Source: Verrucomicrobiota bacterium
GTDB taxonomy: Bacteria > Verrucomicrobiota > Verrucomicrobiia > Limisphaerales > CANJSG01
Assembly: GCA_038209745.1 (NCBI GenBank)
Contig: JBBQXJ010000008.1
Span: forward strand, 16,298-80,297
DNA: 64,000 nucleotides
Direction: 5' to 3'
Made by a program: the position numbers and the translations under genes. Positions 48,432 through 64,000 of the stretch are shown in pieces (within the stretch, counting starts at the first letter, position 1; each line of letters starts with the position of its first letter). The notes below the pieces were generated by a model that saw only the letters and a program-made list of their open reading frames with translations, was not told where the DNA came from and ran no database searches.

Positions 48432-48473
48432 GAATCGGGTAAAATTTGGAGGATGACAGCGAAACGAGAAAAC

Positions 48474-48505
48474 AAAAAAAAGGCGAGGCCGATGAGGACC
48501 TCGCC
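48474..48505 (-). terminator. Intrinsic terminator between rpmA and obgE
   Basis: Minus strand GGCGAGGTC-CTCATC-GGCCTCGCC-TTTTTTTT. Confidence 0.8.
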
Positions 48506-48525
48506 ACAAAATCCTATTCTCGAAA

Positions 48526-48786
48526 TCAATTCTGGGCGACTGCAACCGTCTGGATGCTGACGCGACGACGGTCCTTGTCGAACTTCACCTGACCGTCGGT
48601 CAGAGCGAACAGAGTCCAATCGCGGCCGATGCCGACGTTGACTCCAGCATGGAACTTTGAACCCCGTTGGCGGATGATAATGCTGCCGGCAGTGACATTC
48701 TCGCCACCAAAAGCTTTAACACCGAGGCGCTTTGATACGCTGTCCCGACCGTTGCGGCTACTTCCGCCACCTTTTTTATGTGCCAT
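48526..48786 (-). CDS. rpmA: 50S ribosomal protein L27
   Basis: [30 protein letters not shown]. Confidence 0.98.
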
Positions 48787-48812
48787 AACCTGATCCTGTT
48801 CTCCGTTCCGAC

Positions 48813-49124
48813 TTAAGCTTGAATTCCCGTGATCTTCACGACCGTCAATTCTTGGCGATGGCCCACCGTGCGGTGGTAGCCTTTTCGACGCTTCATCTTA
48901 AAAGCGATCACCTTGTCGCCGCGCTTGTGCTCGACGACGTCGGCCATGACTTTGGCCGCATTGACAGTGGGCGTTCCAAAGGTCGCCGTGTCGCCGCCTC
49001 CGATCATGAGAACGCGTTCAAAGGTGAACGTCTGGCCAGCCTCTACTTCGAGGCGTTCGATTTCCAACGTGTCTCCGGCAATGACACGGTATTGTTTGCC
49101 GCCGGTTTCCAAAACTGCATACAT
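48813..49124 (-). CDS. rplU: 50S ribosomal protein L21
   Basis: [29 protein letters not shown]. Confidence 0.98.
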
Positions 49125-49292
49125 AAATTCAGCCCTTAAAAGGAGCGCTGACAGCACCAAACCAGCGACCATGTGTCAATCATCTATTTTCTCCATTCGC
49201 TCAAATCTCGAAACTTGGTTTGCCATCAAACTCCTTTCTCTAAAACGTCGCCCAAGCCGGAACCATGCAGAAGAAAACACGACTGGGCGATG

Positions 49293-49341
49293 ATCCGGAC
49301 TCCGACCAACGGGTATCCTACCCGTTGGTCGGAGTCCGGAT
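49293..49341. repeat. Perfect 23-bp inverted repeat with TCC/GGA triloop
   Basis: ATCCGGACTCCGACCAACGGGTA-TCC-TACCCGTTGGTCGGAGTCCGGAT. Confidence 0.9.
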
Positions 49342-49589
49342 GGAATCACTCAACCGTGTGGGCCACAGCGGTAGGCGAAACCCTTCGGAACCTGCACGGC
49401 CCACCGGCCAGGCTGGGAGTCCGATTGCAAGTCGATTCGTAATTTCGCCAATCTTCGCATCGTTTTGGCTGGCAGGTTCTTAGTTCGCCCTCTACATCCA
49501 ACCGGTATTCACCCCGTGAAAACGAAGGCGAAAGGAAACGAACCAATTCTGTTGCCAAGTGATGCCAAATCTCACGTTTCAATCGGTCG

Positions 49590-49672
49590 GTTCGGTGCAA
49601 CTCGCGGCCCAGAAACGTCATCGGATTTGCATGGCCTGTGTAAGTTGGGACGAGCAAGGCATAATGCGCCAT
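49590..49672 (-). pseudogene. 5' fragment of a family-1 (MGT-like) glycosyltransferase
   Basis: MAHYALLVPTYTGHANPMTFLGRELHR matches the GT1 N-terminal P..GH.NP...L.REL.R motif; similarity stops after ~27 aa. Confidence 0.6.
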
Positions 49673-49759
49673 GTCTGGTCAGATTACGGAAAGGATGAGC
49701 ATGGGCAAACCCCATCCAGTCATAGAGCATACGCGCCGCGCGCGATTCGACCCGCCTCC

Positions 49760-50607
49760 TCACGGCAATAGTTTCACGAGGTAGAACTGCTGCTGCTGCT
49801 GGAAGGCATTGGCGATCGTCACTTTCTGGGCAGTGCCGTCGCCCGTCCTCATGGACCCTGGAACTTCGACCCACCCTCCGGTGGAGAAGTTCGTGCGGCT
49901 TTCGACGATGAAGCGTTGGCCCCGGTTTCCGGAGAAACGAAAACCCAGTTCGCTGGCGGTATAGCTGGCGAGGGATATTTTGGATTCCTTCCGGGCCGTC
50001 GCGGCGGTGCCTTTGATCGGCATCCTGCGATTGCTGGTCGGGTCGGCCGCTCCCCACGTGGCTCCATCGTTGAACGAGTCCGCGCTTCCAAAGGGTTCCA
50101 GCCGCGCCGGTGGTCATGAGCGGTGTGGCGGGTGTCCTGATGACGGGGCGCTGGGTGCTGCCCCCACGGTGATGAACACTATGGGGTGGGTCTCCCCGGA
50201 GAGGTTCATCATCAGCCCGGTGCTGGAGGAGCGTTTGCCGGTGCCCGGGTCGTCGGAATAAATCAGGAGCCGGACCACCGGGGTGGGTTGCCGAGATCCC
50301 GGCTGCCCAAGACCAAGTCCACGGAGTCGAGCGCGTAGGTCTGCGGTCCGAGGCAGAATTTGTTCGCCTGCCAAACGTTGGGAGCGGCGAAACCCTGGCC
50401 ACTAAAACTGGCGCCGCTGTTGTTAAAAATCGTGATAGGTCCGCCCGCCGACGGGGTCGTTGCAAGCATACTCCAGAATCCTCCTTCGATCACGGAGCGG
50501 TTGTCGTTCATCCGGCCTGTGGCGAGCTGGCCGATGGTGCTACTGAGGGCGAAACCGCCGCCGGCACTCGAATTGCCACCAACGGCGATGAAGAACTGTA
50601 AACGGCT
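49760..50607 (-). pseudogene. Frameshifted, 5'-truncated secreted/surface protein gene
   Basis: Consecutive protein-like pieces in different frames: GGNSSAGGGFALSSTIGQ..IEGGFWS..ANKFCLGPQTYALDSVDL; PVVRLLIYSDDPGTGK; SFNDGATW..FRFSGNRGQRFIVESRTNFSTGGWVEV..QQFYLVKLLP. No start codon or signal peptide. Confidence 0.7.
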
Positions 50608-53600
50608 CTAAAAATTCAACCGTAGGCTGAGCGTCAAGGTCCGGCCGCGCGGGAGAGTGGCGTGGAGGTTCAGAGGGCTGAGCCGATAGTCCTGGTCGAA
50701 GACGTTGAGCAGGCTGCAACGGAGTTCCGCGACGCGGCGAGGAAGGCGATAGCCGAGGGTGACATTGTGCTGCCAGAAATCGTCGCCGGGCCGTGCGGGG
50801 GTGTAGCCGGAGTTTTCCTGATGGAACCACGCGGATTCCCATTGGGCGAAGACGCCGCTGGAGTGGTGGAAGTTCGCGGTCAGCGAAAACGTCTGGAGCA
50901 CCCCACGCTCGTCCTGTTCCAGTCCGGCCAAGCCCGGCGTTCCGGCGGGGATGTCGGGAAACTGGCCGTTCAGTTCCGCTTCGCTGACGCGGTAGTGCGC
51001 GCCGACTGAAAAGCTTTCTCCGAGCAGTTGCCCGAAGTAGGCAGAGACGGAGCGTTCGCGGAAGGCCACCGACTGGCGCGTGCCCGACGGCGAATCGGCC
51101 AGCGCGAGGAACGGGATGGAATTCGTCAGCACGCCGACCATGCGGTCGCCGTCGGACTCCAGCCATTGACCCTCGATGCCGAACCACGTGCCCGAGGCGA
51201 AAGACTGGTCGAAGCCCAGTCCTGCGCTGTCGAAACGAGCTCCCGGCACGAGGCCGCCGGCACTCTCGGGCACTAGGCTGCGGAATGCCTGGTTGAATCC
51301 GCCGACCTGCGTCGGCTCCAGGCGCTCGCTCTGGTCGAACGAAGCTCCCCCCAGCGACCGCGCGAACCCGGCGCGGAATACGCCACGATGCCACGGTTGG
51401 TAGATGATCCCGGCTTTCGGCGCCAAGAGGAACCGAGTCTCGGTGCCGTTTGCTACGGGCGGCAGTTCGCTGTTCAACGGGTGCTCCAGCAGGTCGTAGG
51501 CGACGCCAGCGGTGAGGTGGAGCGTCGGCAGCAGATGCCACGTTTCGTAGCCGTAGAGACTGAAGCGCTGAATCGGATCGGCCACCGTTTGGTCCGTCAC
51601 GATGCCGGCGAATCCACGACCCAGACTGGCGTGCGTCTCGACATCACCTCTCTGCCAGCGGCCGCCGACCACCAACGCCTGCTGCTCCGATTGCCAGATC
51701 TGCTGGAGCTCGGCGGTCCAGAGCTTGGTGGCGCTGGTCTGGTCCAGAGCGAAGGCGGGGCCGGCTGGCGGCGACTGTACCTCGACGTCTGTGCCGCCGT
51801 TTTTGCGAACGAACACGAGATTCGGTTGGGGATCGTGCAGCGTGAGATTGTCCTCGATGTGTGACAGGAGAAACAACGTGTGGCTGCCGGCGGACCACGC
51901 GTGATGCCAGCCGAGGTGCAGGGCGGGCTCCTGGTCTTCGCGGACATGGAACCCGCTCTTGGCCGAAGCGGGATCATAGTAGTCGGCCACGCCGCCCGCG
52001 TCGCTCCGGTAGTCGCCGACCTGAAAGTAGAGCTCGACGTCGACTGTGATCCGTTGCTTCGCTGTGAGGATGAACTGACGGCGTTCGGCGGCTTGGTCCA
52101 CCCGTTCGCCGACGGAGTTTTCGAAGGATGCGTCGAGCGCGTAGCTGAGGCCGTCGACGGTGCCGAAGAAGCTCGCGCTCTGCCGCCAGTCGCCGTTGTC
52201 GGTGTATTCGGTCAACGACGCCACCGCCAGAGGCCGTGGATCGAAGAAGCGCAGGTGGTCCTGCTGGTCGAGCAGCTGCGACAGGTTTCCTGCGCCGGGC
52301 GGTGCCAGGAGATTCGCCACGAGCAGTTCTGCATTGCGCGCGGTTTCGAGACGAAGATTGAAGCGGCTCCGGTCTTCTTGGGCTTGATGGCTGTTGGCGA
52401 GGAAGAGGTGGGCTGAGAATTCGGCGTAGTCTTCGGTCACTGCACGGGCGGCGGCTTGGTGACTGACGTCGGCCAGGCCGACGTCGGCGTAAAGCGCGGC
52501 GAGATTGGCGCTGCGGATCGCTCGGTCGCCGTCAAGCAGGAGGCGTGAACGGAAAACGGCGCGGTTGTCGTTGCGGTCGGCGGCGGCTTCAAGATCGCGA
52601 ATCGCGTCGTTCAGCCGGTTCTGCTGCCAGAGCCGGAGACCGGAATAGAACCAGCCGGTCGGCTCGGCGGGATCGAGGCGTTTGGCGAGATCCAGCTCCT
52701 TGGTAGCGGCCTCGTTGTCGCCACTCTCGCTGGCGGCCTTGCCGAGGTAGGCGCGGAAGAGGCCACGCTGCGGCTCAAGAGCGGCGGCGGTCCGGAAGGC
52801 TTCGCGGGCAGCGGCGAATTCGCGCGAACGCATCCGACAGAGTCCCGAGCCGATCCAACCCGGACCGTAGGCCGGATCAAGCCGGAGCGCTTCGACGAAG
52901 GCGGACATGGCTCCGCGCTCACGGAACTGGTCGAGAGCGATGAAGCCGCGTAGCGCGTGGGCCGGAGCGTAGGCGGGGGACAATTCGGCCGCCAAGGCCA
53001 GGGCCTCCAGCGCGGCGTGGCGATTGCCAAAGGCGAATTCAAGTTCGGCCAATCGGGCTTGGGCGATGCCGAATCGCGGAGCCAACCCGGTCGCTGTTCG
53101 CGCTGCGTCGCGAGCACCGGCCAGCTCGCCGCGCGCCTGCAAGGTGAAGCTCCGGGCCAACGATTCGCTTGGGGTCGGCGGCGTGGACAAGGAGCCGGTT
53201 GAGCGGCCTTGAACGGTGGCGACGAGTTCGCGCAGCGCGCGGGCGGCGGGCCGGTCGATTCCGGCGACCAAGCGGTCGGCGGTTTCGGCCTGACCGACGC
53301 CAAGCAAGAGGGCGGCGCGCAGGCATCGCGCGTCTTCACCTTCGCTTGACGCCGCATTTGGCAGAGCGGCGAGCGCCGCAAGCAAGTCGCCGGTTTCGTA
53401 ACGGCTGAGCGACTCCTGAAGCCGCTCGCGATCCTGCGCTGTGAGCACAAGGTCCGTCGGAGCTACGACGGCTGGATAATAGAGCGCCCACTGGATCGGG
53501 CTCACCACGTCGAGCAATGCAGTTGTGTGCGGGGGCTGGCCGGCGGCGAGCCGCAGTTCATGGCCGCGCTCAACGGTGGTTTCGCCGGCATCGGAGCGCA

Positions 53601-54063
53601 ATGTCACGCGGCCGTCGATCAGGGCGAGACGCAGGCCGTCGTCGGAGCTGGCGAGGAGGAATTCGGTGCCGCGAATGGCTCCGCTGGCCAACGGGGTGTC
53701 GAACTCCACGTCGGTTGGGCGTTCGCGGTTGAAGAAGTAGAGCGAGCCGGCAGGAAGTCCGAAGCGGCGCCTCTCGGCGCGGATCGGCGGAAGGATCTCC
53801 AGCGTGGTGCGTTCGTTGAGGCGGACCACACTGAGATCGGAAAGGCGAACTGCAGCGCGGCTGTTCTCGGCGGTCCGGACCCTCGCACCAGGAACGAGTT
53901 TCGCCCCGATGGTCGCCGCTTGCCAATTGGTGGCGCCAACGTTCAGCAGCTCCACGCGGCCCGCGACCTCGATGAGGATGCTGGGCGGCGGGTTCGTCTC
54001 GGCCGCTGTCGCGATGGCAGCGGCCGACAGGCAGAACAACAAGATGCAGATCCACCGGGACAC
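50608..54063 (-). CDS. Outer-membrane protein: signal peptide, FecR domain, TPR repeats, TonB-receptor-like beta-barrel; start uncertain (GTG 54063, ORF open to 54240)
   Basis: VRTAENSRAAVRLSDLSVVRLNERTTLEI..FDTPLASGAIRGTEF..LIDGRVTL (FecR); Ala-rich TPR helices (AAALEPQ, AKRLDPAEP); alternating beta-strands ending in LSLRLNF. Confidence 0.85.
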   Translation of the reverse strand: MSRWICILLFCLSAAAIATAAETNPPPSILIEVAGRVELLNVGATNWQAATIGAKLVPGARVRTAENSRAAVRLSDLSVVRLNERTTLEILPPIRAERRRFGLPAGSLYFFNRERPTDVEFDTPLASGAIRGTEFLLASSDDGLRLALIDGRVTLRSDAGETTVERGHELRLAAGQPPHTTALLDVVSPIQWALYYPAVVAPTDLVLTAQDRERLQESLSRYETGDLLAALAALPNAASSEGEDARCLRAALLLGVGQAETADRLVAGIDRPAARALRELVATVQGRSTGSLSTPPTPSESLARSFTLQARGELAGARDAARTATGLAPRFGIAQARLAELEFAFGNRHAALEALALAAELSPAYAPAHALRGFIALDQFRERGAMSAFVEALRLDPAYGPGWIGSGLCRMRSREFAAAREAFRTAAALEPQRGLFRAYLGKAASESGDNEAATKELDLAKRLDPAEPTGWFYSGLRLWQQNRLNDAIRDLEAAADRNDNRAVFRSRLLLDGDRAIRSANLAALYADVGLADVSHQAAARAVTEDYAEFSAHLFLANSHQAQEDRSRFNLRLETARNAELLVANLLAPPGAGNLSQLLDQQDHLRFFDPRPLAVASLTEYTDNGDWRQSASFFGTVDGLSYALDASFENSVGERVDQAAERRQFILTAKQRITVDVELYFQVGDYRSDAGGVADYYDPASAKSGFHVREDQEPALHLGWHHAWSAGSHTLFLLSHIEDNLTLHDPQPNLVFVRKNGGTDVEVQSPPAGPAFALDQTSATKLWTAELQQIWQSEQQALVVGGRWQRGDVETHASLGRGFAGIVTDQTVADPIQRFSLYGYETWHLLPTLHLTAGVAYDLLEHPLNSELPPVANGTETRFLLAPKAGIIYQPWHRGVFRAGFARSLGGASFDQSERLEPTQVGGFNQAFRSLVPESAGGLVPGARFDSAGLGFDQSFASGTWFGIEGQWLESDGDRMVGVLTNSIPFLALADSPSGTRQSVAFRERSVSAYFGQLLGESFSVGAHYRVSEAELNGQFPDIPAGTPGLAGLEQDERGVLQTFSLTANFHHSSGVFAQWESAWFHQENSGYTPARPGDDFWQHNVTLGYRLPRRVAELRCSLLNVFDQDYRLSPLNLHATLPRGRTLTLSLRLNF

Positions 54064-54275
54064 GGCCCCAGCGTGGGAGATCGGCCTACGGAGGGGAAGC
54101 GGTGAAGCGGCGAACGGCCCGCGCCACCTCTGAGCCGCCGCAGAACCGGGTTCCGACCCGGTGGAAGTTGGCTTCGAAGCACACACGATGGTTAAGATTT
54201 GTCCGAAGCGGCTTCCGCGAGACTCCAGGTCCCGCTCCACGGCGGAAGGATTTTCATCCCGGTTTCAGGTGAAGC

Positions 54276-55649
54276 TCAGGGAGCCGAAGTCGCGATGATG
54301 AACAGGGCGGCATTGGTGCCCTTCAAGACCCCGTTTTGAAACTGCCGTCGGACGAACATCCCGTGAGCACCGTCGATGAAGTTTAGGTCGTATTCATTCC
54401 AGCGGTCGGCCTTGAACTGGACGACCAGCGAAAAGGTGTCCGCTCCTGTTGCGGCGTAGGTGTAGGTGAAGTCGGTCGGCGCACTGTCGTCGTGCTGTAC
54501 CCCGGTGGCCGTCTGGAAGACGAGATTCTCAGGCACGGCACCGCTCAGCATGGTGTAGGTCAATCCTGCGGGGGACACCGGCGGCGGATTCGTGACAGCG
54601 ATGTCCGTCACGGGCGTCACGGTGCCACCGTTGGATCCGGCCAACCCGGTGGGGCTGAAGACGCCGGTGTCGGTGTTTTTGAGAGTGCCTCGGCGGTATT
54701 GACGGCGCACGAAATGTCCGGACGGACCATCGGTGAAGACGAGATCGATTTCGTAACGGTCGCCACCCGCGCCGTAATAGCCGAATTTCATCACGAGCGA
54801 CGCGGTGTTCGTGGAGAGCACGGTGTAGGTGTAGACGAAGCCATTGGTGGACGAACCTTCCGAGACGACGCCCTGGATCTCCACGCCGGCCGTCGTGTCG
54901 GAGAAGCCGTACTGGTCCGGCACGCCGATGGCCTGGAAGTAGTAGAGCAACCCGGCCAGCGAAGCAGGTGGAGCCGGTGGTTCCGACGCGGTGGCTCCTC
55001 CGCCCGCCGCGCCGTTCGTGGAGACGACGACCAGGGTTCCGGCGAGATCCCCGAGCACCCGGAAGAGCCCCGTGTGCCTGTTTTTCAGGCGGCCGTTGCG
55101 ATACTCCTCGGTGAGCCAGGTGCCGGCGTTCGTCGTGGCGAAGGAATAGGTCAGCACATTGCTGCGGGTCGCGGAATAGACGATGTCGGCCCGGGCTTCG
55201 TTCTCGCCGGTTCGGCGAAATTCGTAGGCGAAGGCGGCGGACTGTCCCTCGGAGAGATCCGCGCCGTTGGTCTCGCCGAGGAAGTCCATCAGTTCGCCAC
55301 CGGGTTCGTCGTCCATCTGGAAGCGCCATCCGGCGACGGACCAAGGGGCGACACCATTGGTGGGACCGTCCATCACACGCACCCGGTAGAAGCGGTGGAC
55401 GCCATTGTCTTCGCGGGCGGAGAACAGCTTTCGGTCGCGACCGCCGTGGCCGGGCTCGGGCTCGCCGAGATCCGTCCAGTCGGTGAGGTTGGTCGAGCTT
55501 TGCAGGACGTAGCTGTGGCCGGGCACGGTGTCGTGCTCAACTTCCACCGCGTGGTTGATGCGGAGGACATCATCGGCGCCGGCGGCGCGCGTTGAGGAAG
55601 CGGCCACCAGTCCGACGGCGATGGCCAGGAGAGGAAGGAATTGTTTCAT
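54276..55649 (-). CDS. Secreted protein with an N-terminal YVLQSSTNLTDW-type beta domain and three tandem ~105-aa beta-rich repeats
   Basis: Signal peptide MKQFLPLLAIAVGLVAASSTRA. Repeats start APWSVAG / PPASLAG / PPVSPAG and end YRNGRLKNRHTGLF / YRRGTLKNTDTGVF / FQNGVLKGTNAALF. Confidence 0.82.
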   Translation of the reverse strand: MKQFLPLLAIAVGLVAASSTRAAGADDVLRINHAVEVEHDTVPGHSYVLQSSTNLTDWTDLGEPEPGHGGRDRKLFSAREDNGVHRFYRVRVMDGPTNGVAPWSVAGWRFQMDDEPGGELMDFLGETNGADLSEGQSAAFAYEFRRTGENEARADIVYSATRSNVLTYSFATTNAGTWLTEEYRNGRLKNRHTGLFRVLGDLAGTLVVVSTNGAAGGGATASEPPAPPASLAGLLYYFQAIGVPDQYGFSDTTAGVEIQGVVSEGSSTNGFVYTYTVLSTNTASLVMKFGYYGAGGDRYEIDLVFTDGPSGHFVRRQYRRGTLKNTDTGVFSPTGLAGSNGGTVTPVTDIAVTNPPPVSPAGLTYTMLSGAVPENLVFQTATGVQHDDSAPTDFTYTYAATGADTFSLVVQFKADRWNEYDLNFIDGAHGMFVRRQFQNGVLKGTNAALFIIATSAP

Positions 55650-55698
55650 GGTTTCGATGGGTTGTGCCGACGTTTCCGAAGGCGGTTGATCCATTGTT

Positions 55699-55715
55699 AG
55701 CAGCCGCTCTGCCAA
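55699..55715 (-). promoter_or_regulatory. sigma54 promoter P1
   Basis: Minus strand TTGGCAGAGCGGCTGCT (GG-N10-GC), 50 nt upstream of ATG 55649. Confidence 0.7.
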
Positions 55716-55775
55716 GGCTCCGGAGGCTTGGAAAGGGGCTTGAATACGATTGGAACCGGGAGTGGAGATCGGGGG

Positions 55776-55813
55776 CGTTCCGGGAGCGGAACAAGTGTTC
55801 CGCTGTCGCGGAT
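55776..55813. promoter_or_regulatory. Upstream activator site(s) for P1
   Basis: cGTTCCG-GGAG-CGGAACA (55776-55793) and a degenerate TGTTCCG-CTGT-CGCGGAT 20 bp away. Confidence 0.7.
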
Positions 55814-55997
55814 CTGAACCCCAAATCCTCGGCCGAAGCCTTGCCCTGAAGACGGAATCGAACCACGCAAAGCTGGGGTCTCCGAACAGAACGGGATTTT
55901 CCCGTGCTTTCCGTGCCACACGGAACAGCCTCGGAGTCCGACCCGCGTTCACCCGCATCGTTCCAACTGACAGTCCCGCACAGAGAACTGAAAACCG

Positions 55998-56032
55998 AAA
56001 GGGCGACGGACCGCAAAAAGCGGTCCGTCGCC
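55998..56032 (-). terminator. Intrinsic terminator of the 199-aa secreted protein gene
   Basis: GGCGACGGACCGC-N5-GCGGTCCGTCGCC perfect 13-bp stem, followed on the minus strand by CTTTCGGTTTT. Confidence 0.7.
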
Positions 56033-56051
56033 TGATTGTTTCGACGAACGC

Positions 56052-56651
56052 CTACTGTCCGGCAAAGACAGGGTTCCCCGAGGCGTCGGAGATCACGACT
56101 CCGACCAGGGTGTCGCCGGGCATGCTAAATAGCTTTTCGGAGCACGAGCCCGCACCCCCGACGATCACCATGGAGGTGTTCAGGTAGGGATACAGGACGC
56201 CCGATCCGACCACGTGAACGTAGAGGACCGTGCCATCGGGCACGTTCAGCGAGCTCACCTGCGCATTCACGGTCATGTCCATGAGTGTCGGGTAGTACTG
56301 GGCGATCTGGTAGGAGCCGGTGCAGACCGGATAGACACCGTTGATCGGACCGGAAGCCGCATAGATCACAGAGGTCAACGGAGTGGCGGCAGGAAGCGCG
56401 GGGCTGGGAGCCGGTGCCGGTGCTGGAGAGGGCGAGGGAGCGGTGGACCTTCCACCCCCGCCTCCGGTGGCACCGCCTCCACCACTTTTCACGAGACCCC
56501 CTTTGTCGGGTATGGGTGTGGGGGTTGTGCTGCTGACTCCGCCGCCGCTGCCGCCGGAGGCGCGGAGCTGGGGTTGGGCGATCGTGCCGCACAGGGCGAG
56601 CACGGCGGCCAAGGTGAAGAACCGGCCTGCGATTGTCTGAGTGGGCTTCAT
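56052..56651 (-). CDS. Small secreted protein with Gly/Pro-rich linker and a C-terminal beta domain containing two Cys
   Basis: Signal peptide; GGGGATGGGGG and PSPSPAPAPAPSP linker; has its own promoter and terminator. Confidence 0.8.
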   Translation of the reverse strand: MKPTQTIAGRFFTLAAVLALCGTIAQPQLRASGGSGGGVSSTTPTPIPDKGGLVKSGGGGATGGGGGRSTAPSPSPAPAPAPSPALPAATPLTSVIYAASGPINGVYPVCTGSYQIAQYYPTLMDMTVNAQVSSLNVPDGTVLYVHVVGSGVLYPYLNTSMVIVGGAGSCSEKLFSMPGDTLVGVVISDASGNPVFAGQ

Positions 56652-56735
56652 AATTGTGTTTGTCTGACCAACGTTTGTTTATCGAACTCCGCTTCTCTGT
56701 TCCTCATGGAACGGTCGGGGTTCGTCCAACGAGAT

Positions 56736-56751
56736 AGCAGCGGCGATGCCA
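56736..56751 (-). promoter_or_regulatory. sigma54 promoter P2
   Basis: Minus strand TGGCATCGCCGCTGCT (GG-N10-GC), 85 nt upstream of ATG 56651. Confidence 0.7.
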
Positions 56752-56925
56752 CGGAAGATTTGGAACGGGAAGAGGCGCGGCGGATGGCCGAAGGAGAAGG
56801 ACAATCTCGGTGGAAACGGCCTTTTTGCCGCAGGAATGTCGACATTTCCAATTCCCAACCTCAGCAGCGATAAGATTAGGCCGGTTCATTCGAACGGACG
56901 ACGCGAGGCTCCGTGTTCCAATGTG

Positions 56926-56943
56926 TGTTCCGGCGGCGGAACA
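56926..56943. promoter_or_regulatory. Upstream activator site for P2
   Basis: Perfect palindrome TGTTCCG-GCGG-CGGAACA. Confidence 0.7.
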
Positions 56944-57168
56944 TGATAACTGCTGGATCATGAACGCGGGAGCAGTCCGGATTATTCCTCCCATCTTTCG
57001 AGCAAGCGCATCCAGTCTGTGTCCTCCCGCTCCTTGATCTTGCGTGTGGGTTCGGGGAGATGGCTTTCGCAGCATGTCCACGGAGTCCGGAGAAAAGGCT
57101 TCCAATTCTCCCCCGCCCCACGAGCCAAGCTGGAAGCTTCGGCCTGGCCGGCACGAACTTCATCCAAC

Positions 57169-58956
57169 CTACTCGATCCGGATGCGGAGGAAGGTGTTGG
57201 TCCCAGCGGGAAGATTCAGCGAACCGGGCTGTCCGTCTCCGAGGATCGATCCGGCCCTCTCGGTCCATGGCCCCGAGACGTCTTCGGCTTGCTGGATGTA
57301 GTAGCTCTGGCCGGCGACGGTCTCGAAGCGGAACTGCGGTCCATCGACTCCGGCGACCAGATCGCAGCGTGGTGGCACGACGACGTCGAGTTGAAGGGTG
57401 ACGGTCACCGGGTCGGCCAGGTAGTTCGCCACCGTGACCGTGTAGTCGCCCGACTGGTCGCGCGTGACCGCTTTCAGGGACAGGACGATGCTCTTTGCCC
57501 CGGGGATGGCCGAACCACCATGACGCCAGGTCACGGTTACCGGTGGGCTCGCGGCGATCGGGGCGGAAAACTCCACGTCCGTTCCGACGGCCACCGTTCG
57601 TTTCGGCGGCAGGCTCAGGATCGTGGGAGGCTTCGGAGCATCGTTGGTGTTCAGCTGATAGTTCAGCCACGCGATACCGCGAGCACCTGCGACGCCATCG
57701 ACGGCCACGAGGTAGGTCCGGCTTTTCAGCACGGGCAATCGCACGCCGGAAGCGACCCCATTCGAGACTCCGCCGTGGTCGCAGTTGATCGGGATGAGAT
57801 CGGCGTAGGAGGCGGGCGTGCCGTTGAAGGTGTAGACCTCCATCACCGTGTCGTAGGTGCTGCCGACGGTGTCGAGCGACACCATGCCATCGGCGGGCGG
57901 CTGGTAGGACAACCAATACGACGCGCCGCCCGGGACCCCGCAATGGACGGGCTCGGTCGCATCCGTCGTGGCATAGACGGTGTTGAAGATCTGGCTGCCG
58001 TTGTAGCCGCGCACCACGCCGACCGGGCCGCCGGACGGCTGGCGCAAGGACGACTGGACCCGGCGATTGGGCGTCGCCGGAACAACTGCATTCCCTCCAC
58101 GGTCGTCGACGCCGATCAACGGGGACGCGAGGGCGTCGAAGGGTTTGTCGCGGGCGAGCGCGTTGGTCTGTCCGTCGGAGTTGACCTGGATCTCCACCGG
58201 TGTCGTGTCGATCTCCAGCCGATTCCCTCCGTTGCCCACGCGGATGCGGAGCGAATAACGGCCGACATTGGTCACCTGCAGGCTGGGGATGAAAAGCGTG
58301 GGCCCCGTCGCGTCGAAAGACTCGTCGTTGAACCGCCACTGGAGATCCACGTCCGGCGCGGCGTCGAGCGCGATGGTCAGAGTCACTGGGTCGCCGAGCC
58401 GGGCGGCGCGGTCGCCCGGCACGGAGACGACGACCGGCGGCGGCGTGGTCAAATCGATGAAGTCCCAGTGCAGATGGATCGAACCGACAGCGCCGTCGAA
58501 ACCGTCCACCGCGATCTCGTAGCGCACGCCGGCCCGTGCGCCGAACCGGATCAAGCTGGTCGGAGCGGCGCCGGGCTGGTCGTCGTTGCGCGCCGTTTCG
58601 TGGAGCTTGTCCACAGTGGTTTCGCCGGGGGCGAGCGTGTAGGCCGAGAGCAGCGTGTCGAAGGAACTGCCGGCCGTGCGGAACGTGGCGACGCCATCCG
58701 CCGGGGCGATCCACGAAATCCAGACCGAGTGGCCGCCGCTCTTGCCGCCGTGTTTCGGTTCCCCGTTCTCGAACGTCGCGGTCAGATTGTCTCCCACCAG
58801 ATCGCCGGTTGGGGTGGCGACGGTTTCGCGTCCGGCGAAGCTGTCTGAAAAGCTGGCGGCACGGCCGACCCTCCCTCCTAACAGGATCAGGAGAAGCACG
58901 ACGGGCCAAAGGCCGTGTCGCGCGCAGAACCATCGTCTGTCCGCCGAGGTGTTCAT
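57169..58956 (-). CDS. Secreted protein with two PPC-like beta-sandwich domains, two immunoglobulin-like domains and a C-terminal beta domain
   Basis: Duplicated EP.H...GG.S.W....PADG......GS..DT....Y...Y..AVDG unit. Ig-like QWRFN..LFIPSLQVTNVGRYSL and TWRHGG..LSLKAVTRDQSGDYTV. Confidence 0.85.
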   Translation of the reverse strand: MNTSADRRWFCARHGLWPVVLLLILLGGRVGRAASFSDSFAGRETVATPTGDLVGDNLTATFENGEPKHGGKSGGHSVWISWIAPADGVATFRTAGSSFDTLLSAYTLAPGETTVDKLHETARNDDQPGAAPTSLIRFGARAGVRYEIAVDGFDGAVGSIHLHWDFIDLTTPPPVVVSVPGDRAARLGDPVTLTIALDAAPDVDLQWRFNDESFDATGPTLFIPSLQVTNVGRYSLRIRVGNGGNRLEIDTTPVEIQVNSDGQTNALARDKPFDALASPLIGVDDRGGNAVVPATPNRRVQSSLRQPSGGPVGVVRGYNGSQIFNTVYATTDATEPVHCGVPGGASYWLSYQPPADGMVSLDTVGSTYDTVMEVYTFNGTPASYADLIPINCDHGGVSNGVASGVRLPVLKSRTYLVAVDGVAGARGIAWLNYQLNTNDAPKPPTILSLPPKRTVAVGTDVEFSAPIAASPPVTVTWRHGGSAIPGAKSIVLSLKAVTRDQSGDYTVTVANYLADPVTVTLQLDVVVPPRCDLVAGVDGPQFRFETVAGQSYYIQQAEDVSGPWTERAGSILGDGQPGSLNLPAGTNTFLRIRIE

Positions 58957-59022
58957 CAGGTGCCGAGGATCGACGCAGCCGGTCGGATTCTGCCGATGCG
59001 CCGATCCACAACGTTCGACCGT

Positions 59023-59038
59023 AGCGGGAAGAATGCCA
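59023..59038 (-). promoter_or_regulatory. sigma54 promoter P3
   Basis: Minus strand TGGCATTCTTCCCGCT (GG-N10-GC), 67 nt upstream of ATG 58956. Confidence 0.65.
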
Positions 59039-59080
59039 GAGCGCGAGAAACGGGAAAGAGGAAGGTTCCATCGGCGAAAC

Positions 59081-59118
59081 CGTTCCGGCGACGAAGCGGG
59101 TGTTCCGATAGCGGAACA
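59081..59118. promoter_or_regulatory. Upstream activator site(s) for P3
   Basis: Perfect TGTTCCG-ATAG-CGGAACA (59101-59118) and degenerate cGTTCCG-GCGA-CGAAGCg 20 bp away. Confidence 0.7.
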
Positions 59119-59275
59119 GGGCAGGACACGATTCCAGCCTGGCCGGGAGGTCGGACGGGACCGCCCAACGGCGGGCGCCAAGGGGAAAGGAGTGGATCCC
59201 AGATTCCTCCACGCCCCACGGGTCAATCTGGAAGACTGGCCTACGTTCGACCGCGCCGTTACGGCTTTGCCCGAA

Positions 59276-60670
59276 CTATGCCGCTGGCGGACGCAGCTCG
59301 GGCCATTTCTCCAAGCGTCGCAGCAGCGCCTGCGGAGACAGCCCGACCTTGGCGGCGGCGCGACGGATGCCGCCATTGGCCTCGGCCAAGGCCGTTTGGA
59401 TCAAGCGGTATTCCTGCTCCTCCAAGCGCGTCAGAGAGCGTTGAGGAGGCGGAGGCGTTACCGCCGCGGCCGCAGATGGAGGAGCGGCAATGTGTGCGGT
59501 GGTTGGACGCCCGCGATGGAGCCAGTTCACATCCAATTTCAGCCAACGGCTATCGTCCGGCGTTTTGAGCAGGGAGCGCTCCAGGACGTTGCGGAGTTCG
59601 CGAACGTTGCCAGGAAAGTCGTGAGCCTCCAGCGCCTCCAGATCGGCGGGCTGAAGAAGCTGTTTGGTGCGTTCGTATTTTACCGCCAGATCGGCCAGCA
59701 ACCGTTCAGCCAACCGCGCGAGGTCGGCTCGGCGCTGGCGCAGCGGCGGTAGTTCGATGGAGAAGACTTCGAGCCGATAGAGCAGATCCTCGCGGAAACG
59801 GCCCGCGCGCACTTCTTCGGACAGTGAGCGGTTGGTGGCCGCGAGGAAGCGTCCCTGGAACGGCAGCGTCTCGGTGCTGCCCAAGGGTCGGTATTCGCGC
59901 GCCTCCAGCAAGCGGAGCAGTTTCGCCTGGAGCGCGAGCGGCACTTCGCCGATCTCGTCGAGGAACAGGGTGCCGGTTCCGGCGGCCGCGACGAGTCCCT
60001 GGCGTTTGCGGTCGGCTCCCGTGTAGGCCCCGCGTTCGGCACCGAAAAGCTCGGACTCGAACATCTCCGCCGGAAGCGCCGCGCAGTTCACCGCGACAAA
60101 GGGCGCACTGTCGGAGGGATGGGTCAACGCATGGAGCATCCGTGCGGCGACGTCCTTGCCGGTGCCGGTTTCACCGGTGACTAGAACCGTGGTCGTGGCG
60201 TGCCGGGCGATCTGTCGGAGCTGTTGGATCACCTCCACCATGGCCGGTGAATCGCCCAGCCATTCCGTGGCGGACGCGGGTGAGGAGCCGGCGCGGAGCC
60301 GTTGCAAGGCGCGGCGCAGACAGGCCGAGAGCGCATCGACGTTGAGCGGTTTCGGCAGATAGTCGAAGAGCCCGTTCCGGGTGAGCGCGACGGCTTCTCC
60401 GAGATCGGGGATGCCGGTCATCATGATCACCGGCATGTCGGGGTTGCGCCGCGAGAGCATGGCGAAGAAGTCGTAGCCCTTGCCGTCCGGCAGATGGTTG
60501 TCGAGCAGCGCCAGGTCGAATCCACGGGTCGTCGAGACCGAGCACGCCGAGGCGATGTCGCCGCAGTGGACCACCGTTCCGCCTTCCGCGCGCACGACCT
60601 GTCCCGCCATGTCGGCGAACGCGGCGTCGTCTTCGACGATCAAGCAAGTGAACGGGGCGGCGGCTGTCAT
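59276..60670 (-). CDS. NtrC-family sigma54-dependent response regulator (REC, AAA+, Fis-type HTH)
   Basis: LIVEDD..LLDNHLPDG..YLPKP; GETGTGKD; ESELFG..GAYTGA; LFLDEIGE; FREDLLYRL; FPGNVREL; AAAKVGLS. Confidence 0.95.
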   Translation of the reverse strand: MTAAAPFTCLIVEDDAAFADMAGQVVRAEGGTVVHCGDIASACSVSTTRGFDLALLDNHLPDGKGYDFFAMLSRRNPDMPVIMMTGIPDLGEAVALTRNGLFDYLPKPLNVDALSACLRRALQRLRAGSSPASATEWLGDSPAMVEVIQQLRQIARHATTTVLVTGETGTGKDVAARMLHALTHPSDSAPFVAVNCAALPAEMFESELFGAERGAYTGADRKRQGLVAAAGTGTLFLDEIGEVPLALQAKLLRLLEAREYRPLGSTETLPFQGRFLAATNRSLSEEVRAGRFREDLLYRLEVFSIELPPLRQRRADLARLAERLLADLAVKYERTKQLLQPADLEALEAHDFPGNVRELRNVLERSLLKTPDDSRWLKLDVNWLHRGRPTTAHIAAPPSAAAAVTPPPPQRSLTRLEEQEYRLIQTALAEANGGIRRAAAKVGLSPQALLRRLEKWPELRPPAA

Positions 60671-60682
60671 GCGTGGCGAAGT

Positions 60683-63394
60683 CTAGGTGGGGTGGGTCGT
60701 CTTGCCCAGTGCCTGAGCGACGGCCAGGAGAAGCTCGTCGAGCGAGAAGGGCTTCGGCAGAAGCCGAGTGTTCTCCTCGGAGGAAGCGGCGCTGTCCGCT
60801 CCGGAAAGGATGACCGGCAAGCCACTGCGGAGCTTGCGGGCTTCGCGAACCAAGCTCGGTCCGTCCATCCCGGGCATCGAGTTGCCGGTGATCAGCAGCC
60901 GGATCTCCGAGCCTTGGTCCTGCAGCAACTGGAGCGCGACCGCGACGTTCGGCGCGGCCAACACGCAATAGCCTTCAGCCGTCAATCCATCCACGAGCAG
61001 CTCGCGGATCGCCAGTTCGTCGTCCGCCACGAGGATCCTTTCGCCCTGGCCGCGCGGAAGGCCGGCCAGCGAATCAGAGCGCGGCGCGGCTTCGGTCTCG
61101 GTCGCCACGGGCAGGAAGACCTCGAAGGTGCTGCCTTGGCCGGGCTCGCTCTCCACCCGGACAAACCCTTCGTGGCTTTTGACAATACGCTGCACGGTGG
61201 AGAGCCCGATGCCGGTGCCCGCCCCTTCGGCCTTCGTGGTGAAGAACGCTTCAAAGAGGCGCGCCCGCACCTCCGGCGTCATGCCGGTGCCGGTATCGGA
61301 TACCATCAGCGAAACGAATCGACCGGGACGACCGCCCGGAATGGCGGCGGCTTCCTCGGCGGACAGTTCGACATTGTCCGCCGCGAAAGTGAGTCGGCCG
61401 CCGGCAGGCATGGCGTCGCGGGCGTTGACGGCGAGGTTGAGCAGGATCTGGTGCAGTTCGGTGGGCCGGCCACGAACAGGTCGAAGGTCGGGAGGCAGAA
61501 ATGTCTCCAGCTTGATGCCGTGTGGGAACGTATCGCGGACGAGATGCTCCAACTCCCGGACAAGACCGGCGAGATCGACCGTCTCGGCGCTGGCGGCACC
61601 GCCCCGCGCGAAGTGGAGAACCTGCCGGACCATGCCCGCGCCGCGATGGGTGCTGTCCTCGATCATCTGCAACATCCGGCGGGATTCGTCATCCACCGCA
61701 TTGCGACGGAGGATCTGCACGCCCATGAGGACTGGCGCCAGAGCGTTGTTCAGGTCATGGGCCATGCCGGCGGCCAATGCGCCAATTGTGTTCATCCGCT
61801 GCGTGCGGAGGAACTGCGCCTCCAATGCCTTCTGCTCGGACACGTCGCGATTGACCAGCAGCAGGGCTTTCGGTTGGCCGCATCCGTCTCGGATGAGCGT
61901 CCAGCGACTCGACGCAATCAGGATCGCACCCGAAGCGGCGCGCAGCAGCAGTTCGCCGTTCCAATCGCCGTCTTTCAACGCGACGGCTCGCGCCCTAGCG
62001 GCCAGGTCAGGTTGCGGCGAAAAGAGGTCCTGCACGGCGGAATGTTCGCGAAGTTCGGCCAGACTTCGGCCAAAGAGCCGTTCGGCGCTGGGATTGGCAT
62101 AGGTCACTGCACCGTCGATCGTTTGAACGAGAATGGCGTCGTGGGCCGCGTCGATCAGGGCGGCTTGTTCACGAATGCGCTCCTGCGCGATCCGGCGTTC
62201 GGCCTCCAATTGACGACGCGCGCGATACCATTCCACCGATTGGAAAAGCACGGACCCGCCCCATGCAGTCGGCGCTTGGACGAGCCCAACCAGCAACCAC
62301 GGAAACCAGGTCCCGGCCCGAAACGCCATCATCGAACCGACCATCGCGACGACGACTGCGGCGAGTGCACCCGCGGTGGCCCAGACAGGACGAAGCCACA
62401 TCAGGCTGGCGGCCAGCCCGAGCCCGATGCCGGCCAAGACAACCAGCTCCACGCCACGAGAGCCGCGGTGGAGACCATCTTGTCGCAGGAGATTCAGCAA
62501 CTGCGTGGCGTGGACCTCGACGCCGGGCATGAAGAACTCCTTGCGTCCCCAAGAGTGAAAAGGGCTGCGGAATTCATCGCGTGGTTGGTCGAAGGAACCT
62601 TCGGACGAACGGGCACCGATGAAGACAATCTTGTCGCGGAAGAACCCGGCCGGCAGCGCGTCGGAAGAAAGAGCCTCCGCGTAGCTGACATGCGGCAGGC
62701 TGAGAGCCGGGCCGTAGTAGCGCATCCATTCGGCGGTCAACTCCGAGGTGTGTTTTACTCCGATCTGCTTGGCGACCGCGTGGGCCAAGCTTGGCTTTGA
62801 TTCCGAAACCAGTCCCGCGAAATGCCGGCGAACGACCAGATCGTCATCGATCCTGATAACCGCCAATCCCCAGCCCGCGGCGGCTTCAGCGAAAGGTCCG
62901 AAGGGTGGAGACCATGAGCGGCTGCGGGCGCCAGTTGCATTGTCGCCCTCGGCGAGGTGGCTGGATTTGATGTCGTATTCGCCGGCGAGGACCACGCAGC
63001 CGCTTTCGCGGATTGCGCCGGCAAGATCGCGGTCCGCTTCGGGATCTGGCCCCGGTCCGGCGAAAAGAATATCAAAGGCGACGGCTCGCGCGCCCGCTTC
63101 GGTCAGTCGCCGGACGAGCTGTGCGTGGACTTGTCGGGGCCACGGCCGCAACGGATCGAGTCCAGCGGCGCGATAGGTTGCAGGATCGAGATATACGAGA
63201 ACCACCGGAGCGTTCATCGCATTCAAGGGCATCGCGTCGGTCGAAAGACGATGGAGCGAATCGTAGCTCGCATGTTCCAGCCAAGAACCCGAAGAAGTGC
63301 CGTAGAACAGAGGCCAAACTCCCAGTAGCGCCGTCAACAACCCGACCCAAATCACGCCAGCAACGCGGGACACAATCTTGGATCTATCGGGCAT
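60683..63394 (-). CDS. CHASE2-PAS hybrid sensor histidine kinase with C-terminal receiver-like domain; start uncertain
   Basis: PWPRQVHAQLV..GARAVAFDILF, DKIVFIG, MPGVEVHA + 3 TM helices (CHASE2); PAS YANPSAERLFG; AHDLNN; LNLAVNARDAM, DTGTGM, FFTTK, GTGIGL; REC ILVADDE..LPKPF. Confidence 0.93.
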   Translation of the reverse strand: MPDRSKIVSRVAGVIWVGLLTALLGVWPLFYGTSSGSWLEHASYDSLHRLSTDAMPLNAMNAPVVLVYLDPATYRAAGLDPLRPWPRQVHAQLVRRLTEAGARAVAFDILFAGPGPDPEADRDLAGAIRESGCVVLAGEYDIKSSHLAEGDNATGARSRSWSPPFGPFAEAAAGWGLAVIRIDDDLVVRRHFAGLVSESKPSLAHAVAKQIGVKHTSELTAEWMRYYGPALSLPHVSYAEALSSDALPAGFFRDKIVFIGARSSEGSFDQPRDEFRSPFHSWGRKEFFMPGVEVHATQLLNLLRQDGLHRGSRGVELVVLAGIGLGLAASLMWLRPVWATAGALAAVVVAMVGSMMAFRAGTWFPWLLVGLVQAPTAWGGSVLFQSVEWYRARRQLEAERRIAQERIREQAALIDAAHDAILVQTIDGAVTYANPSAERLFGRSLAELREHSAVQDLFSPQPDLAARARAVALKDGDWNGELLLRAASGAILIASSRWTLIRDGCGQPKALLLVNRDVSEQKALEAQFLRTQRMNTIGALAAGMAHDLNNALAPVLMGVQILRRNAVDDESRRMLQMIEDSTHRGAGMVRQVLHFARGGAASAETVDLAGLVRELEHLVRDTFPHGIKLETFLPPDLRPVRGRPTELHQILLNLAVNARDAMPAGGRLTFAADNVELSAEEAAAIPGGRPGRFVSLMVSDTGTGMTPEVRARLFEAFFTTKAEGAGTGIGLSTVQRIVKSHEGFVRVESEPGQGSTFEVFLPVATETEAAPRSDSLAGLPRGQGERILVADDELAIRELLVDGLTAEGYCVLAAPNVAVALQLLQDQGSEIRLLITGNSMPGMDGPSLVREARKLRSGLPVILSGADSAASSEENTRLLPKPFSLDELLLAVAQALGKTTHPT

Positions 63395-63959
63395 ACCGTT
63401 AGCGGGATGCTTGGAGTCTGACGGGAGAAAGACCAGCTCTGATGCGGTTGGTTCAGGGGCAACTGTGATGGCCAATGAAAACGGTTGTTCCTGCCGTTCG
63501 CTATCCATTTCCCTTGGGGCTCGGAAAGCGAAGGCATGAACGAGTAACGCCGCCACGTGGCCCTGCCGGGAGCGATGTCGATCGAGTGCGAGCAGGAGCC
63601 GGTGCGGCCGGCGACGATGACGGCGTTGCTTGTGACGGGACATGGCGCGCCACTGCTGCTGGTCGGACCGCTGCTAGGTTCCGGGGATCAGACCGGTCAA
63701 AAGTGACCGGTCATCCCACTCCAATTTAGCCTCAAATGTTCGTGGGGCGCCGGGTAACAATCCCGCGTCCCTAAAGCGGGAAAACGCTCTCAAGAATGGC
63801 TGTCCTCACTTGGATGATTGTCCTGACCCATGCTTTCCATTTCTTTCGAGACTCGGGGACATAAATCACCTGTTGAAAGATAGGGCCATTTTTAGGGCCA
63901 CACATATTTCGCTTTTTTTCGCAAATTGCTGAGCGTTTTCTCGAAACAAACCGAAAACA

Positions 63960-64000
63960 TGGTGGAGGCGGCGGGCGTTGAACCCGTCCGGAAATTTCGC
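63960..64000 (-). ncRNA. tmRNA-like 3' end (degenerate att copy or the end of ssrA lying beyond the window)
   Basis: Reverse complement ...GGAC-GGG-TTCAACG-CCCGC-CGCCTCC-ACCA: T-arm and acceptor strand with U70, discriminator A and CCA. T-stem and loop are imperfect. Confidence 0.6.

Follow-up and report, generated by a model that had tools for sequence, protein, structure and literature searches.

Six genes lie side by side in the same orientation on contig JBBQXJ010000008.1 of a Verrucomicrobiota bacterium from soil or sediment (assembly GCA_038209745.1), at positions 50608-63394 of the 64,000-nucleotide stretch that was analysed as a whole (referred to here as the window). They raise the question of whether they form a single system that carries a signal from outside the cell, across the envelope, to promoters of its own. 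The genes, designated A to F, encode a CHASE2 histidine kinase (A), a sigma-54 activator of the NtrC type (B), three exported proteins (C, D and E) and a predicted outer-membrane protein similar to NsrA of Sinorhizobium meliloti (F). The cluster probably constitutes a signalling unit that spans the envelope, of the NsrA/CHASE2 kind and with a two-component, sigma-54-dependent output, and a conserved kinase/sigma-54 variant of the NsrA-CHASE2 system is regarded as real. The genes, their domains, the motifs, the uniqueness of the motif in the genome and the conservation in related genomes were observed directly. The source assembly comprises 4.58 Mb and is 92% complete, and motif uniqueness refers to this whole assembly.

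A preliminary description of this DNA, made from the letters and open reading frames, had reported six co-oriented genes; all six were located on the minus strand, as follows.

60683-63394, minus strand: gene A, CHASE2-PAS-histidine kinase with receiver, 903 amino acids (aa) from the ATG at 63394, assigned by Pfam (the reading frame is open to an ATG at 63643)
59276-60670, minus strand: gene B, NtrC-type sigma-54 activator, 464 aa, assigned by Pfam and NCBIfam
57169-58956, minus strand: gene C, exported protein with immunoglobulin-like (Ig) domains, 595 aa, assigned by Pfam and an AlphaFold2 model
56052-56651, minus strand: gene D, exported protein of no known family, 199 aa
54276-55649, minus strand: gene E, exported protein of no known family, 457 aa
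50608-54063, minus strand: gene F, NsrA-like predicted outer-membrane protein of 1151 aa, counted from the GTG at 54063

The housekeeping genes rplU and obg are placed downstream of F and the contig ends upstream of A, so the cluster was considered bounded on both sides.

Receptor-Like Protein F

The predicted protein F is composed of the following parts.

N-terminus: signal peptide, recognized by eye
Residues ~61-153: FecR domain
Residues ~300-580: TPR array
Residues 585-1151: barrel similar to that of TonB receptors

Pfam models matched FecR (PF04773, 1.8e-12), several TPR families and, weakly, TonB_dep_Rec_b-barrel, and the TPR array gave strong TPR matches in a profile search of the PDB. 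In a search of 72,556 plasmid records, F matched the nsrA genes of Sinorhizobium pSymB best. The analogy with NsrA and its partner CyaK drawn in the preliminary description is well founded in size and domain order (1151 and 1200 aa, each with FecR, TPR and a long C-terminal region), in the homology of the FecR domains (31% identical, E 3e-13), of the TPR regions (E 4e-9, both by BLASTP) and of the CHASE2 domains of A and CyaK (30% identical, E 1e-21), and in gene adjacency, nsrA lying directly before cyaK and F homologues likewise before CHASE2 genes in 21 related loci.

Alignments of F and of its barrel part (A1 and A2) included 46 of the 58 full-length copies from the fetched loci; one row with a stop codon was left out, and the others by the choice of single-piece hits. 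The TonB_dep_Rec_b-barrel model (PF00593) matched 43 of the 46 barrel parts, with a best value of 1.2e-15, and the barrel profile retrieved TonB-dependent siderophore receptors from the PDB (5nec, E 2.5e-4). With hhalign, barrel columns 247-565 were placed on residues 565-853 of the canonical TonB receptor of the same genome (probability 49%, E 1.7e-4); by this offset, the 567-aa domain would be as long as a complete receptor barrel and would start where the plug ends. The full F profile had no likeness to the plug region of this canonical receptor (hhalign probability 0.14%), and the Plug model (PF07715) matched all four canonical TonB receptors of the genome and neither of its two F-type genes, both of which match the barrel model. 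No N-terminus resembling a TonB box was seen in F by eye. By sequence, F therefore shows neither of the marks of a TonB-dependent transporter, an N-terminal Plug domain and a TonB box inside a 22-strand barrel, the box being judged by eye; in terms of sequence profiles, the earlier statement that it carries no classical plug is correct. It is also unlike a FecIRA system, since the cluster encodes no sigma-70 family domain and the FecR domain, which follows a signal peptide, is joined to the barrel.

The family to which the barrel belongs is large: 2870 cluster representatives reach E ≤ 0.001, and 826 reach E ≤ 1e-30. Among the best 150, lengths of 1130-1260 aa with a C-terminal barrel predominate. 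A count of alternating hydrophobicity on the barrel alignment gave 35 fragmented peaks and was too crude to be used for the number of strands.

Kinase A and Activator B

In the 903-aa numbering, the domains of A are the following.

Residues ~30-322: CHASE2
Residues ~411-518: PAS
Residues ~539-599: HisKA, with His546
Residues ~643-764: HATPase_c
Residues ~787-892: receiver

Pfam thus supports the CHASE2/PAS kinase first described (CHASE2, 4e-38, with PAS, HisKA and HATPase_c) and adds a C-terminal receiver that was absent from that description. With CHASE2 between membrane segments recognized by eye, His546 in HisKA, and HATPase_c, the protein fits a CHASE2 sensor kinase. Its receiver has Gly837 (codon GGC, 60884-60886) at the position of the phospho-acceptor Asp, which is kept in the aligned kinase-type orthologues; the sequence at this codon was identical in contigs of four metagenome runs, some of which may be the source of this assembly.

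Gene B starts 12 nt past the stop of A. Its product contains REC, Sigma54_activat (9e-61), AAA lid and HTH_8 domains (Pfam, NCBIfam), and the receiver Asp57, a GAYTGA loop at residue 214 and a Fis-type helix-turn-helix (HTH) place it with the NtrC-type activators. The kinase and activator pair proposed at first was thus recovered; the multi-step phosphorelay proposed with it is not the likeliest wiring, Gly837 replacing the Asp. A hybrid-kinase relay requires a receiver Asp and an Hpt partner; A has no such Asp, and Hpt domains were found in five places elsewhere in the genome and none on this contig. On the basis of the residues present, it is therefore more likely that A passes the phosphate from its His546 directly to Asp57 of B, and the receiver of A would preferably be seen as a modulator.

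Two TGACCGGTC(A) palindromes, 4 nt apart, are located at 63691-63713, about 300 nt upstream of the start of A. They could be an operator for another regulator of the A-B operon.

Putative Promoters and Palindrome

The -24/-12 pattern TGGCA-N6-CnGCT was present four times in the window against 0.69 expected, a number reached by none of 100 shuffles. Three of the four sites, all on the minus strand, precede the start of C by 67 nt, that of D by 85 nt and that of E by 50 nt. The classical consensus TGGCAC-N5-TTGC, with two mismatches allowed, was not enriched in the window (38 sites, 61.7 expected). An exact GTTCCG-N4-CGGAAC palindrome lies 71, 183 and 70 bp upstream of the C, D and E promoter sites, respectively, so that each secreted gene has a candidate sigma-54 promoter of its own and the shared palindrome, as had been proposed. 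The sites are the following.

59102-59117: palindrome GTTCCG-N4-CGGAAC before C, exact; presumed binding site of B
59082-59097 and 59065-59080: degenerate palindrome copies before C
59023-59038, minus strand: sigma-54-type -24/-12 site TGGCATTCTTCCCGCT, 67 nt before the C start
56927-56942: palindrome GTTCCG-N4-CGGAAC before D, exact
56736-56751, minus strand: sigma-54-type site TGGCATCGCCGCTGCT, 85 nt before the D start
56002-56032, minus strand: strong terminator-like hairpin after D, 13 pairs, 11 of them G-C
55777-55792: palindrome GTTCCG-N4-CGGAAC before E, exact
55699-55714, minus strand: sigma-54-type site TGGCAGAGCGGCTGCT, 50 nt before the E start

The three palindromes of the window are the only exact copies in the assembly, where the reversed control pattern does not occur. 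Across the genome, a scan listed 60 sites resembling the promoter and 497 resembling the palindrome with at most two mismatches, and only at the three sites of the cluster and one other, weak locus did a palindrome lie 30-260 bp upstream of a promoter. This candidate fourth site, on contig C42 of the window's own genome (G000:C42:15967-16035; palindrome with two mismatches), precedes the gene of a small membrane protein and one for a FliA-like sigma factor, and was judged to be probably a flagellar promoter unrelated to B. Apart from this weak locus, the pairs of palindrome and promoter are confined to the cluster, which agrees with its having been called self-contained. The genome contains rpoN; together with the GG-N10-GC element and an inverted repeat 70-200 bp upstream, this is what sigma-54 promoters with upstream activator sites are expected to have, and the three sites are putative promoters of this kind. 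The promoter and terminator scan of 49000-64000 gave no sigma-70-like site, and the hairpin after D was its sole convincing terminator.

Regulatory Sites in Orthologous Loci

The regulatory sites were surveyed in 16 loci of the window's clade (L-numbers denote the loci fetched from other records). In 11 of them (L016-L019, L021, L024, L025, L027, L029, L030 and L045), the palindrome, which once ends in CGGAAT, is followed 49-127 bp later by TGGCA-N6-yTGCT, directly before F. The promoter stands before E with F directly next, as in the window, in four of the 16 (L020, L022, L023 and L047), two of which have an exact palindrome. In L046, C and F are contiguous behind such a pair under a looser promoter pattern, and L048 stops at a contig edge. 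The C homologues also carry the palindrome and promoter pair. In a second clade, with the gene order (C)-B-F-A, promoters of the CGGCAy-N5-yTGCT or TGGCA type precede F, and CGGACC-type repeats take the place of the GTTCCG-N4-CGGAAC palindrome.

Since the pair precedes F in orthologous loci, F is, as judged from these sites, a regular member of the putative regulon. The idea that the receptor is itself induced is hence supported by the orthologous loci; in the window, it would depend on read-through from the E promoter.

Two loci have further genes behind such sites. The stretch L021:300-7800, between the activator gene and the C homologue, starts with a palindrome and a sigma-54 site and encodes an InlB-B-repeat/PKD protein, a multihaem cytochrome c protein and an NHL-repeat protein; the regulon may thus be larger in some genomes. 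In L046, a further palindrome and sigma-54 site downstream of F precede the gene of an 870-aa Ig-domain protein.

Distribution, Gene Order and Co-Diversification

Of 40 relatives belonging to the same genus or order, 23 gave strong full-length matches to F (E ≤ 1e-100), frequently with more than one copy, and F-type genes elsewhere in the phylum were limited to four of 300 other sampled genomes (E ≤ 1e-40). For the neighbourhoods, 63 loci with up to 10 kb on each side were probed with the proteins of the window, and 57 distinct full-length F copies were counted after removal of one duplicate locus. A CHASE2 gene was found in the fetched flanks of 38 of the 57 (37 by tblastn and one more by a hidden Markov model), in 21 of these after F, on the same strand and within 350 bp. 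Eight loci, with F 54-59% identical, share the order A-B-C-(E)-F with the window, and the second clade, with the order (C)-B-F-A, has F 44-50% identical. The co-occurrence of these genes elsewhere, which the preliminary description had put forward as a check, is thus confirmed, in two gene orders; the module is not unique and is common in this order of bacteria. In L046 (G039:C19, G039 being the genome of a relative), the activator, C and F are together and the orthologue of A (56% identity) is on another contig (L087, G039:C119).

At more distant F copies, the output of the neighbouring CHASE2 protein varied. Among 20 that were scanned, 13 had a nucleotide cyclase, five a Ser/Thr kinase and two a PAS-kinase-receiver; the last two are kinase-type loci included for comparison. 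In the tree of CHASE2 domains, all 18 kinase-type rows are on one side of a branch with a support of 99. In the tree of F barrels, a clade of 20 rows (support 100) contains no cyclase or Ser/Thr-kinase partners: 14 rows have kinase-type partners, one has a probable kinase-type partner cut at the contig end, and five have none in range. Among the basal loci of the CHASE2 kinase group, F falls outside the 20-row clade for both of those on the F tree (L051 and L058); L050, also basal, was dropped from that tree. The two trees agree; the receptor and the sensor domain have thus diversified together, as partners would.

The window's genome contains three CHASE2 genes and three FecR genes. A small FecR protein is encoded directly before a CHASE2 cyclase on contig C11 (L086:12244-15413), a CHASE2 Ser/Thr kinase is encoded on contig C64 (L085:2063-4087), and a second F-type gene, cut off by the contig end, lies on contig C123 (L084:1-2874). 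A pairing of the last two was considered and rejected; they are not adjacent, and gltX and an open reading frame with no assigned function precede the C64 gene. In L052 (G039:C5:8800-28700), two tandem F-type genes, 43-44% identical to F, stand beside one CHASE2 cyclase, and a third copy is about 10 kb away on the same contig.

Proposed Mechanism and Comparison with Known Systems

In the proposed mechanism, F would be placed in the outer membrane as a plug-less barrel of the TonB-receptor type, with its FecR domain and TPR arm in the periplasm. A cue from outside, probably a macromolecule, would alter F, whose periplasmic part would act on the periplasmic CHASE2 domain of A. The kinase would then autophosphorylate at His546 and pass the phosphate directly to Asp57 of B, and phosphorylated B would bind the three GTTCCG-N4-CGGAAC sites and open the three sigma-54 promoters. 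C, D and E would be made, and transcription continuing from E would yield more F, as a positive feedback. The membrane locations, the contact between F and A, the phosphotransfer, the use of the promoters and the nature of the signal are what we infer from the observations above.

A related path is known from FecA-FecR-FecI, where the signal passes from a TonB-receptor-type barrel through the periplasmic domain of FecR to the transcription machinery; in this kind of cell-surface signalling, the FecR domain is the module that reads the TonB receptor. The present cluster differs in that FecR is fused to the barrel and in having no plug, signalling extension, anti-sigma transmembrane part or extracytoplasmic function (ECF) sigma factor. 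With the NtrB/NtrC systems it shares a REC-AAA+-HTH activator, an inverted-repeat site ~70-185 bp upstream and a GG-N10-GC promoter; unlike them, it has a transmembrane CHASE2 kinase with a degenerate receiver and a private regulon of exported proteins. To our knowledge, NsrA is the only outer-membrane partner of a CHASE2 protein with genetics behind it; the present system bears on how CHASE2 domains receive signals.

According to two reports, NsrA of S. meliloti is an outer-membrane beta-barrel protein, with the barrel at about residues 600-1200, that perceives a plant or ribosomal uL2 protein signal and works through three CHASE2 cyclases (CyaK, CyaD1 and CyaD2) and the regulator Clr, perception by CyaK requiring NsrA (PMC7529298, PMC13001267). 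The output is different here, a histidine kinase and sigma-54 activator in place of a cyclic AMP cyclase and Clr, and the receptor gene is at the far end of the cluster and not directly before the CHASE2 gene. The regulon, consisting of three adjacent exported proteins and probably the receptor, and the host, a member of the Verrucomicrobiota, also set it apart from the S. meliloti system.

Two further arrangements are close in composition. The Burkholderia 'BiofilmReg' operon encodes a response regulator, a LysM-FecR protein, a CHASE2 histidine kinase and a DUF4136 protein (PMC5192318); this operon and a FecR/CHASE2-kinase pair of Pseudomonas aeruginosa resemble the cluster in combining a FecR envelope protein, a CHASE2-PAS kinase and a response regulator. 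As presented there, their FecR protein is soluble or bound to peptidoglycan through LysM, with no TPR array and no barrel, unlike F, and their regulator is of the CreB/OmpR type and not a sigma-54 activator (PMC5192318). A Campylobacterota cluster, as outlined in PMC9239204, contains a CHASE2 adenylate cyclase, a phosphodiesterase, an outer-membrane protein with a FecR domain, and also a TPR protein. It is similar in grouping a CHASE2 enzyme with FecR and TPR proteins, and unlike the present cluster in its cyclase output and in having the FecR barrel and the TPR part on two distinct proteins (PMC9239204).

Full-text searches of the literature listed no account joining a FecR-TPR-barrel protein or CHASE2 with a sigma-54 activator. 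The present analysis adds that the exact palindrome is unique to the cluster within the genome, that the receptor gene has a conserved place behind it, that three output types exist and the receptor and sensor trees agree, and that the receiver is degenerate. The same FecR-TPR-barrel/CHASE2 input is found in one order with three outputs: a cyclase, a Ser/Thr kinase, and a histidine kinase paired with a sigma-54 activator. In its kinase version, the system has a very small and sharply defined regulon, with three promoters and one unique palindrome, which would suit a clean reporter for finding the ligand and for studying how a signal crosses the outer membrane free of TonB.

Alternative Explanations

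Several observations weigh against the signalling unit as proposed. No CHASE2 gene was present in the fetched DNA of 19 of the 57 F copies; nine of these belong to the window's own clade, where the kinase lies 5-7 kb upstream of F and the flank was short or contained additional genes. The barrels of F and NsrA gave no significant BLASTP alignment, and it is sequence profiles that indicate a plug-less barrel in F. The 213-nt gap between E and F contains no sigma-54 site, palindrome or terminator, and the fold of its RNA has no structure beyond that of shuffled sequences (z -1.41); several orthologous E-F spacers hold G+C-rich hairpins, so that read-through into F is uncertain. A relay via an Hpt protein encoded elsewhere is possible for the family, the receivers of relatives keeping their Asp. 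The 20 carriers listed for the stretch are DNA contigs of sediment metagenomes, with no RNA run among them.

Were F a transporter or a secretion pore, for nutrient uptake of the TonB type or for the export of C, D and E, its traffic could be what the kinase monitors. The kinship of its barrel with TonB-dependent receptors and the export of all the co-regulated proteins would fit this, as would general knowledge of the Fec system, in which FecR reads a TonB receptor and FecA-FecR-FecI accompanies ferric citrate uptake. The missing Plug domain, the lack of similarity in the plug region and an N-terminus without a TonB-box-like segment by eye make it improbable, and neither an ECF sigma factor nor uptake genes are present in the cluster, which is flanked by the housekeeping genes rplU and obg. 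Somewhat less improbable, and still unlikely, is that F is an output only, an induced envelope protein that might be a porin-like channel or might anchor C, D and E, and that the CHASE2 domain of A itself senses a periplasmic or membrane cue. Orthologous F genes that share their type of palindrome and sigma-54 promoter with the other targets, and C-like genes near F in 29 of the 57 copies, are expected under this explanation too, and the contact between F and A is one that we infer. However, F homologues adjoin CHASE2 cyclases and Ser/Thr kinases in loci with no sigma-54 activator, the F and CHASE2 trees agree, and the perception of the signal by CyaK in S. meliloti needs NsrA (PMC7529298, PMC13001267).

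That the six genes are neighbours by chance and have no joint function is hardly credible, given that many genomes keep the gene set, in two different orders, and that the palindrome is confined to the cluster within the genome, yet conserved in orthologous loci. A signalling unit with F as the receptor of A is thus the preferred explanation.

Exported Proteins C, D and E

All three proteins have N-terminal hydrophobic segments resembling signal peptides (by eye). C contains Ig domains (Pfam), and its AlphaFold2 model (34-row alignment, mean predicted local distance difference test score 78.8) is an all-beta string of five beta-sandwich domains, arranged as two repeats of a beta-sandwich and an Ig domain followed by a small C-terminal beta-sandwich. 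Foldseek matched this model to multi-Ig adhesion molecules and to a bacterial 'grappling hook' protein. The family is conserved, with 47-74% identity in more than 100 metagenome proteins among those listed, and the window's genome has only one full C-type gene.

D consists of a Gly/Ser/Pro-rich linker and a beta-rich C-terminal domain of ~110 aa, and a homologue in L022 has a palindrome and promoter of its own. E contains an internal repeat, seen in tblastn, with three similar units of ~110 aa by eye. No Pfam or NCBIfam model matched D or E, even at E = 5, and their look-alikes in the ESM Atlas were unnamed clusters only, those of E being confined to Verrucomicrobiota. The preliminary description had called the three secreted proteins unrelated, which is roughly correct; C and E share a weak module of ~55 aa (E 0.015).

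It is conceivable, though unlikely, that C, and perhaps D and E, are not just targets and serve as an extracellular bait or co-receptor acting with the F barrel, by which an outside macromolecule would be sensed via the cell's own secreted proteins in a self-amplifying manner. The leads are the C-like genes near F, which include those of cyclase-type loci without a sigma-54 activator, the single full C gene of the genome and the perception of a protein by NsrA. The cluster also provides a first clue to the function of the secreted Ig-like proteins of Verrucomicrobia, a family that is common but has no name.

Other Observations

The 1.4 kb at 49173-50607, between rplU and the end of F, have a lower G+C content (0.54-0.60) and contain short open reading frames only, with no Pfam match; no RNA family (Rfam) was matched in 48000-64000 of the window. 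Seven of the fetched loci (L016, L017, L021, L025, L026, L028 and L043) are contigs of metagenome-assembled genomes titled 'uncultured Bifidobacterium/Bifidobacteriaceae' that bear the Verrucomicrobia-type cluster, and these labels look wrong.

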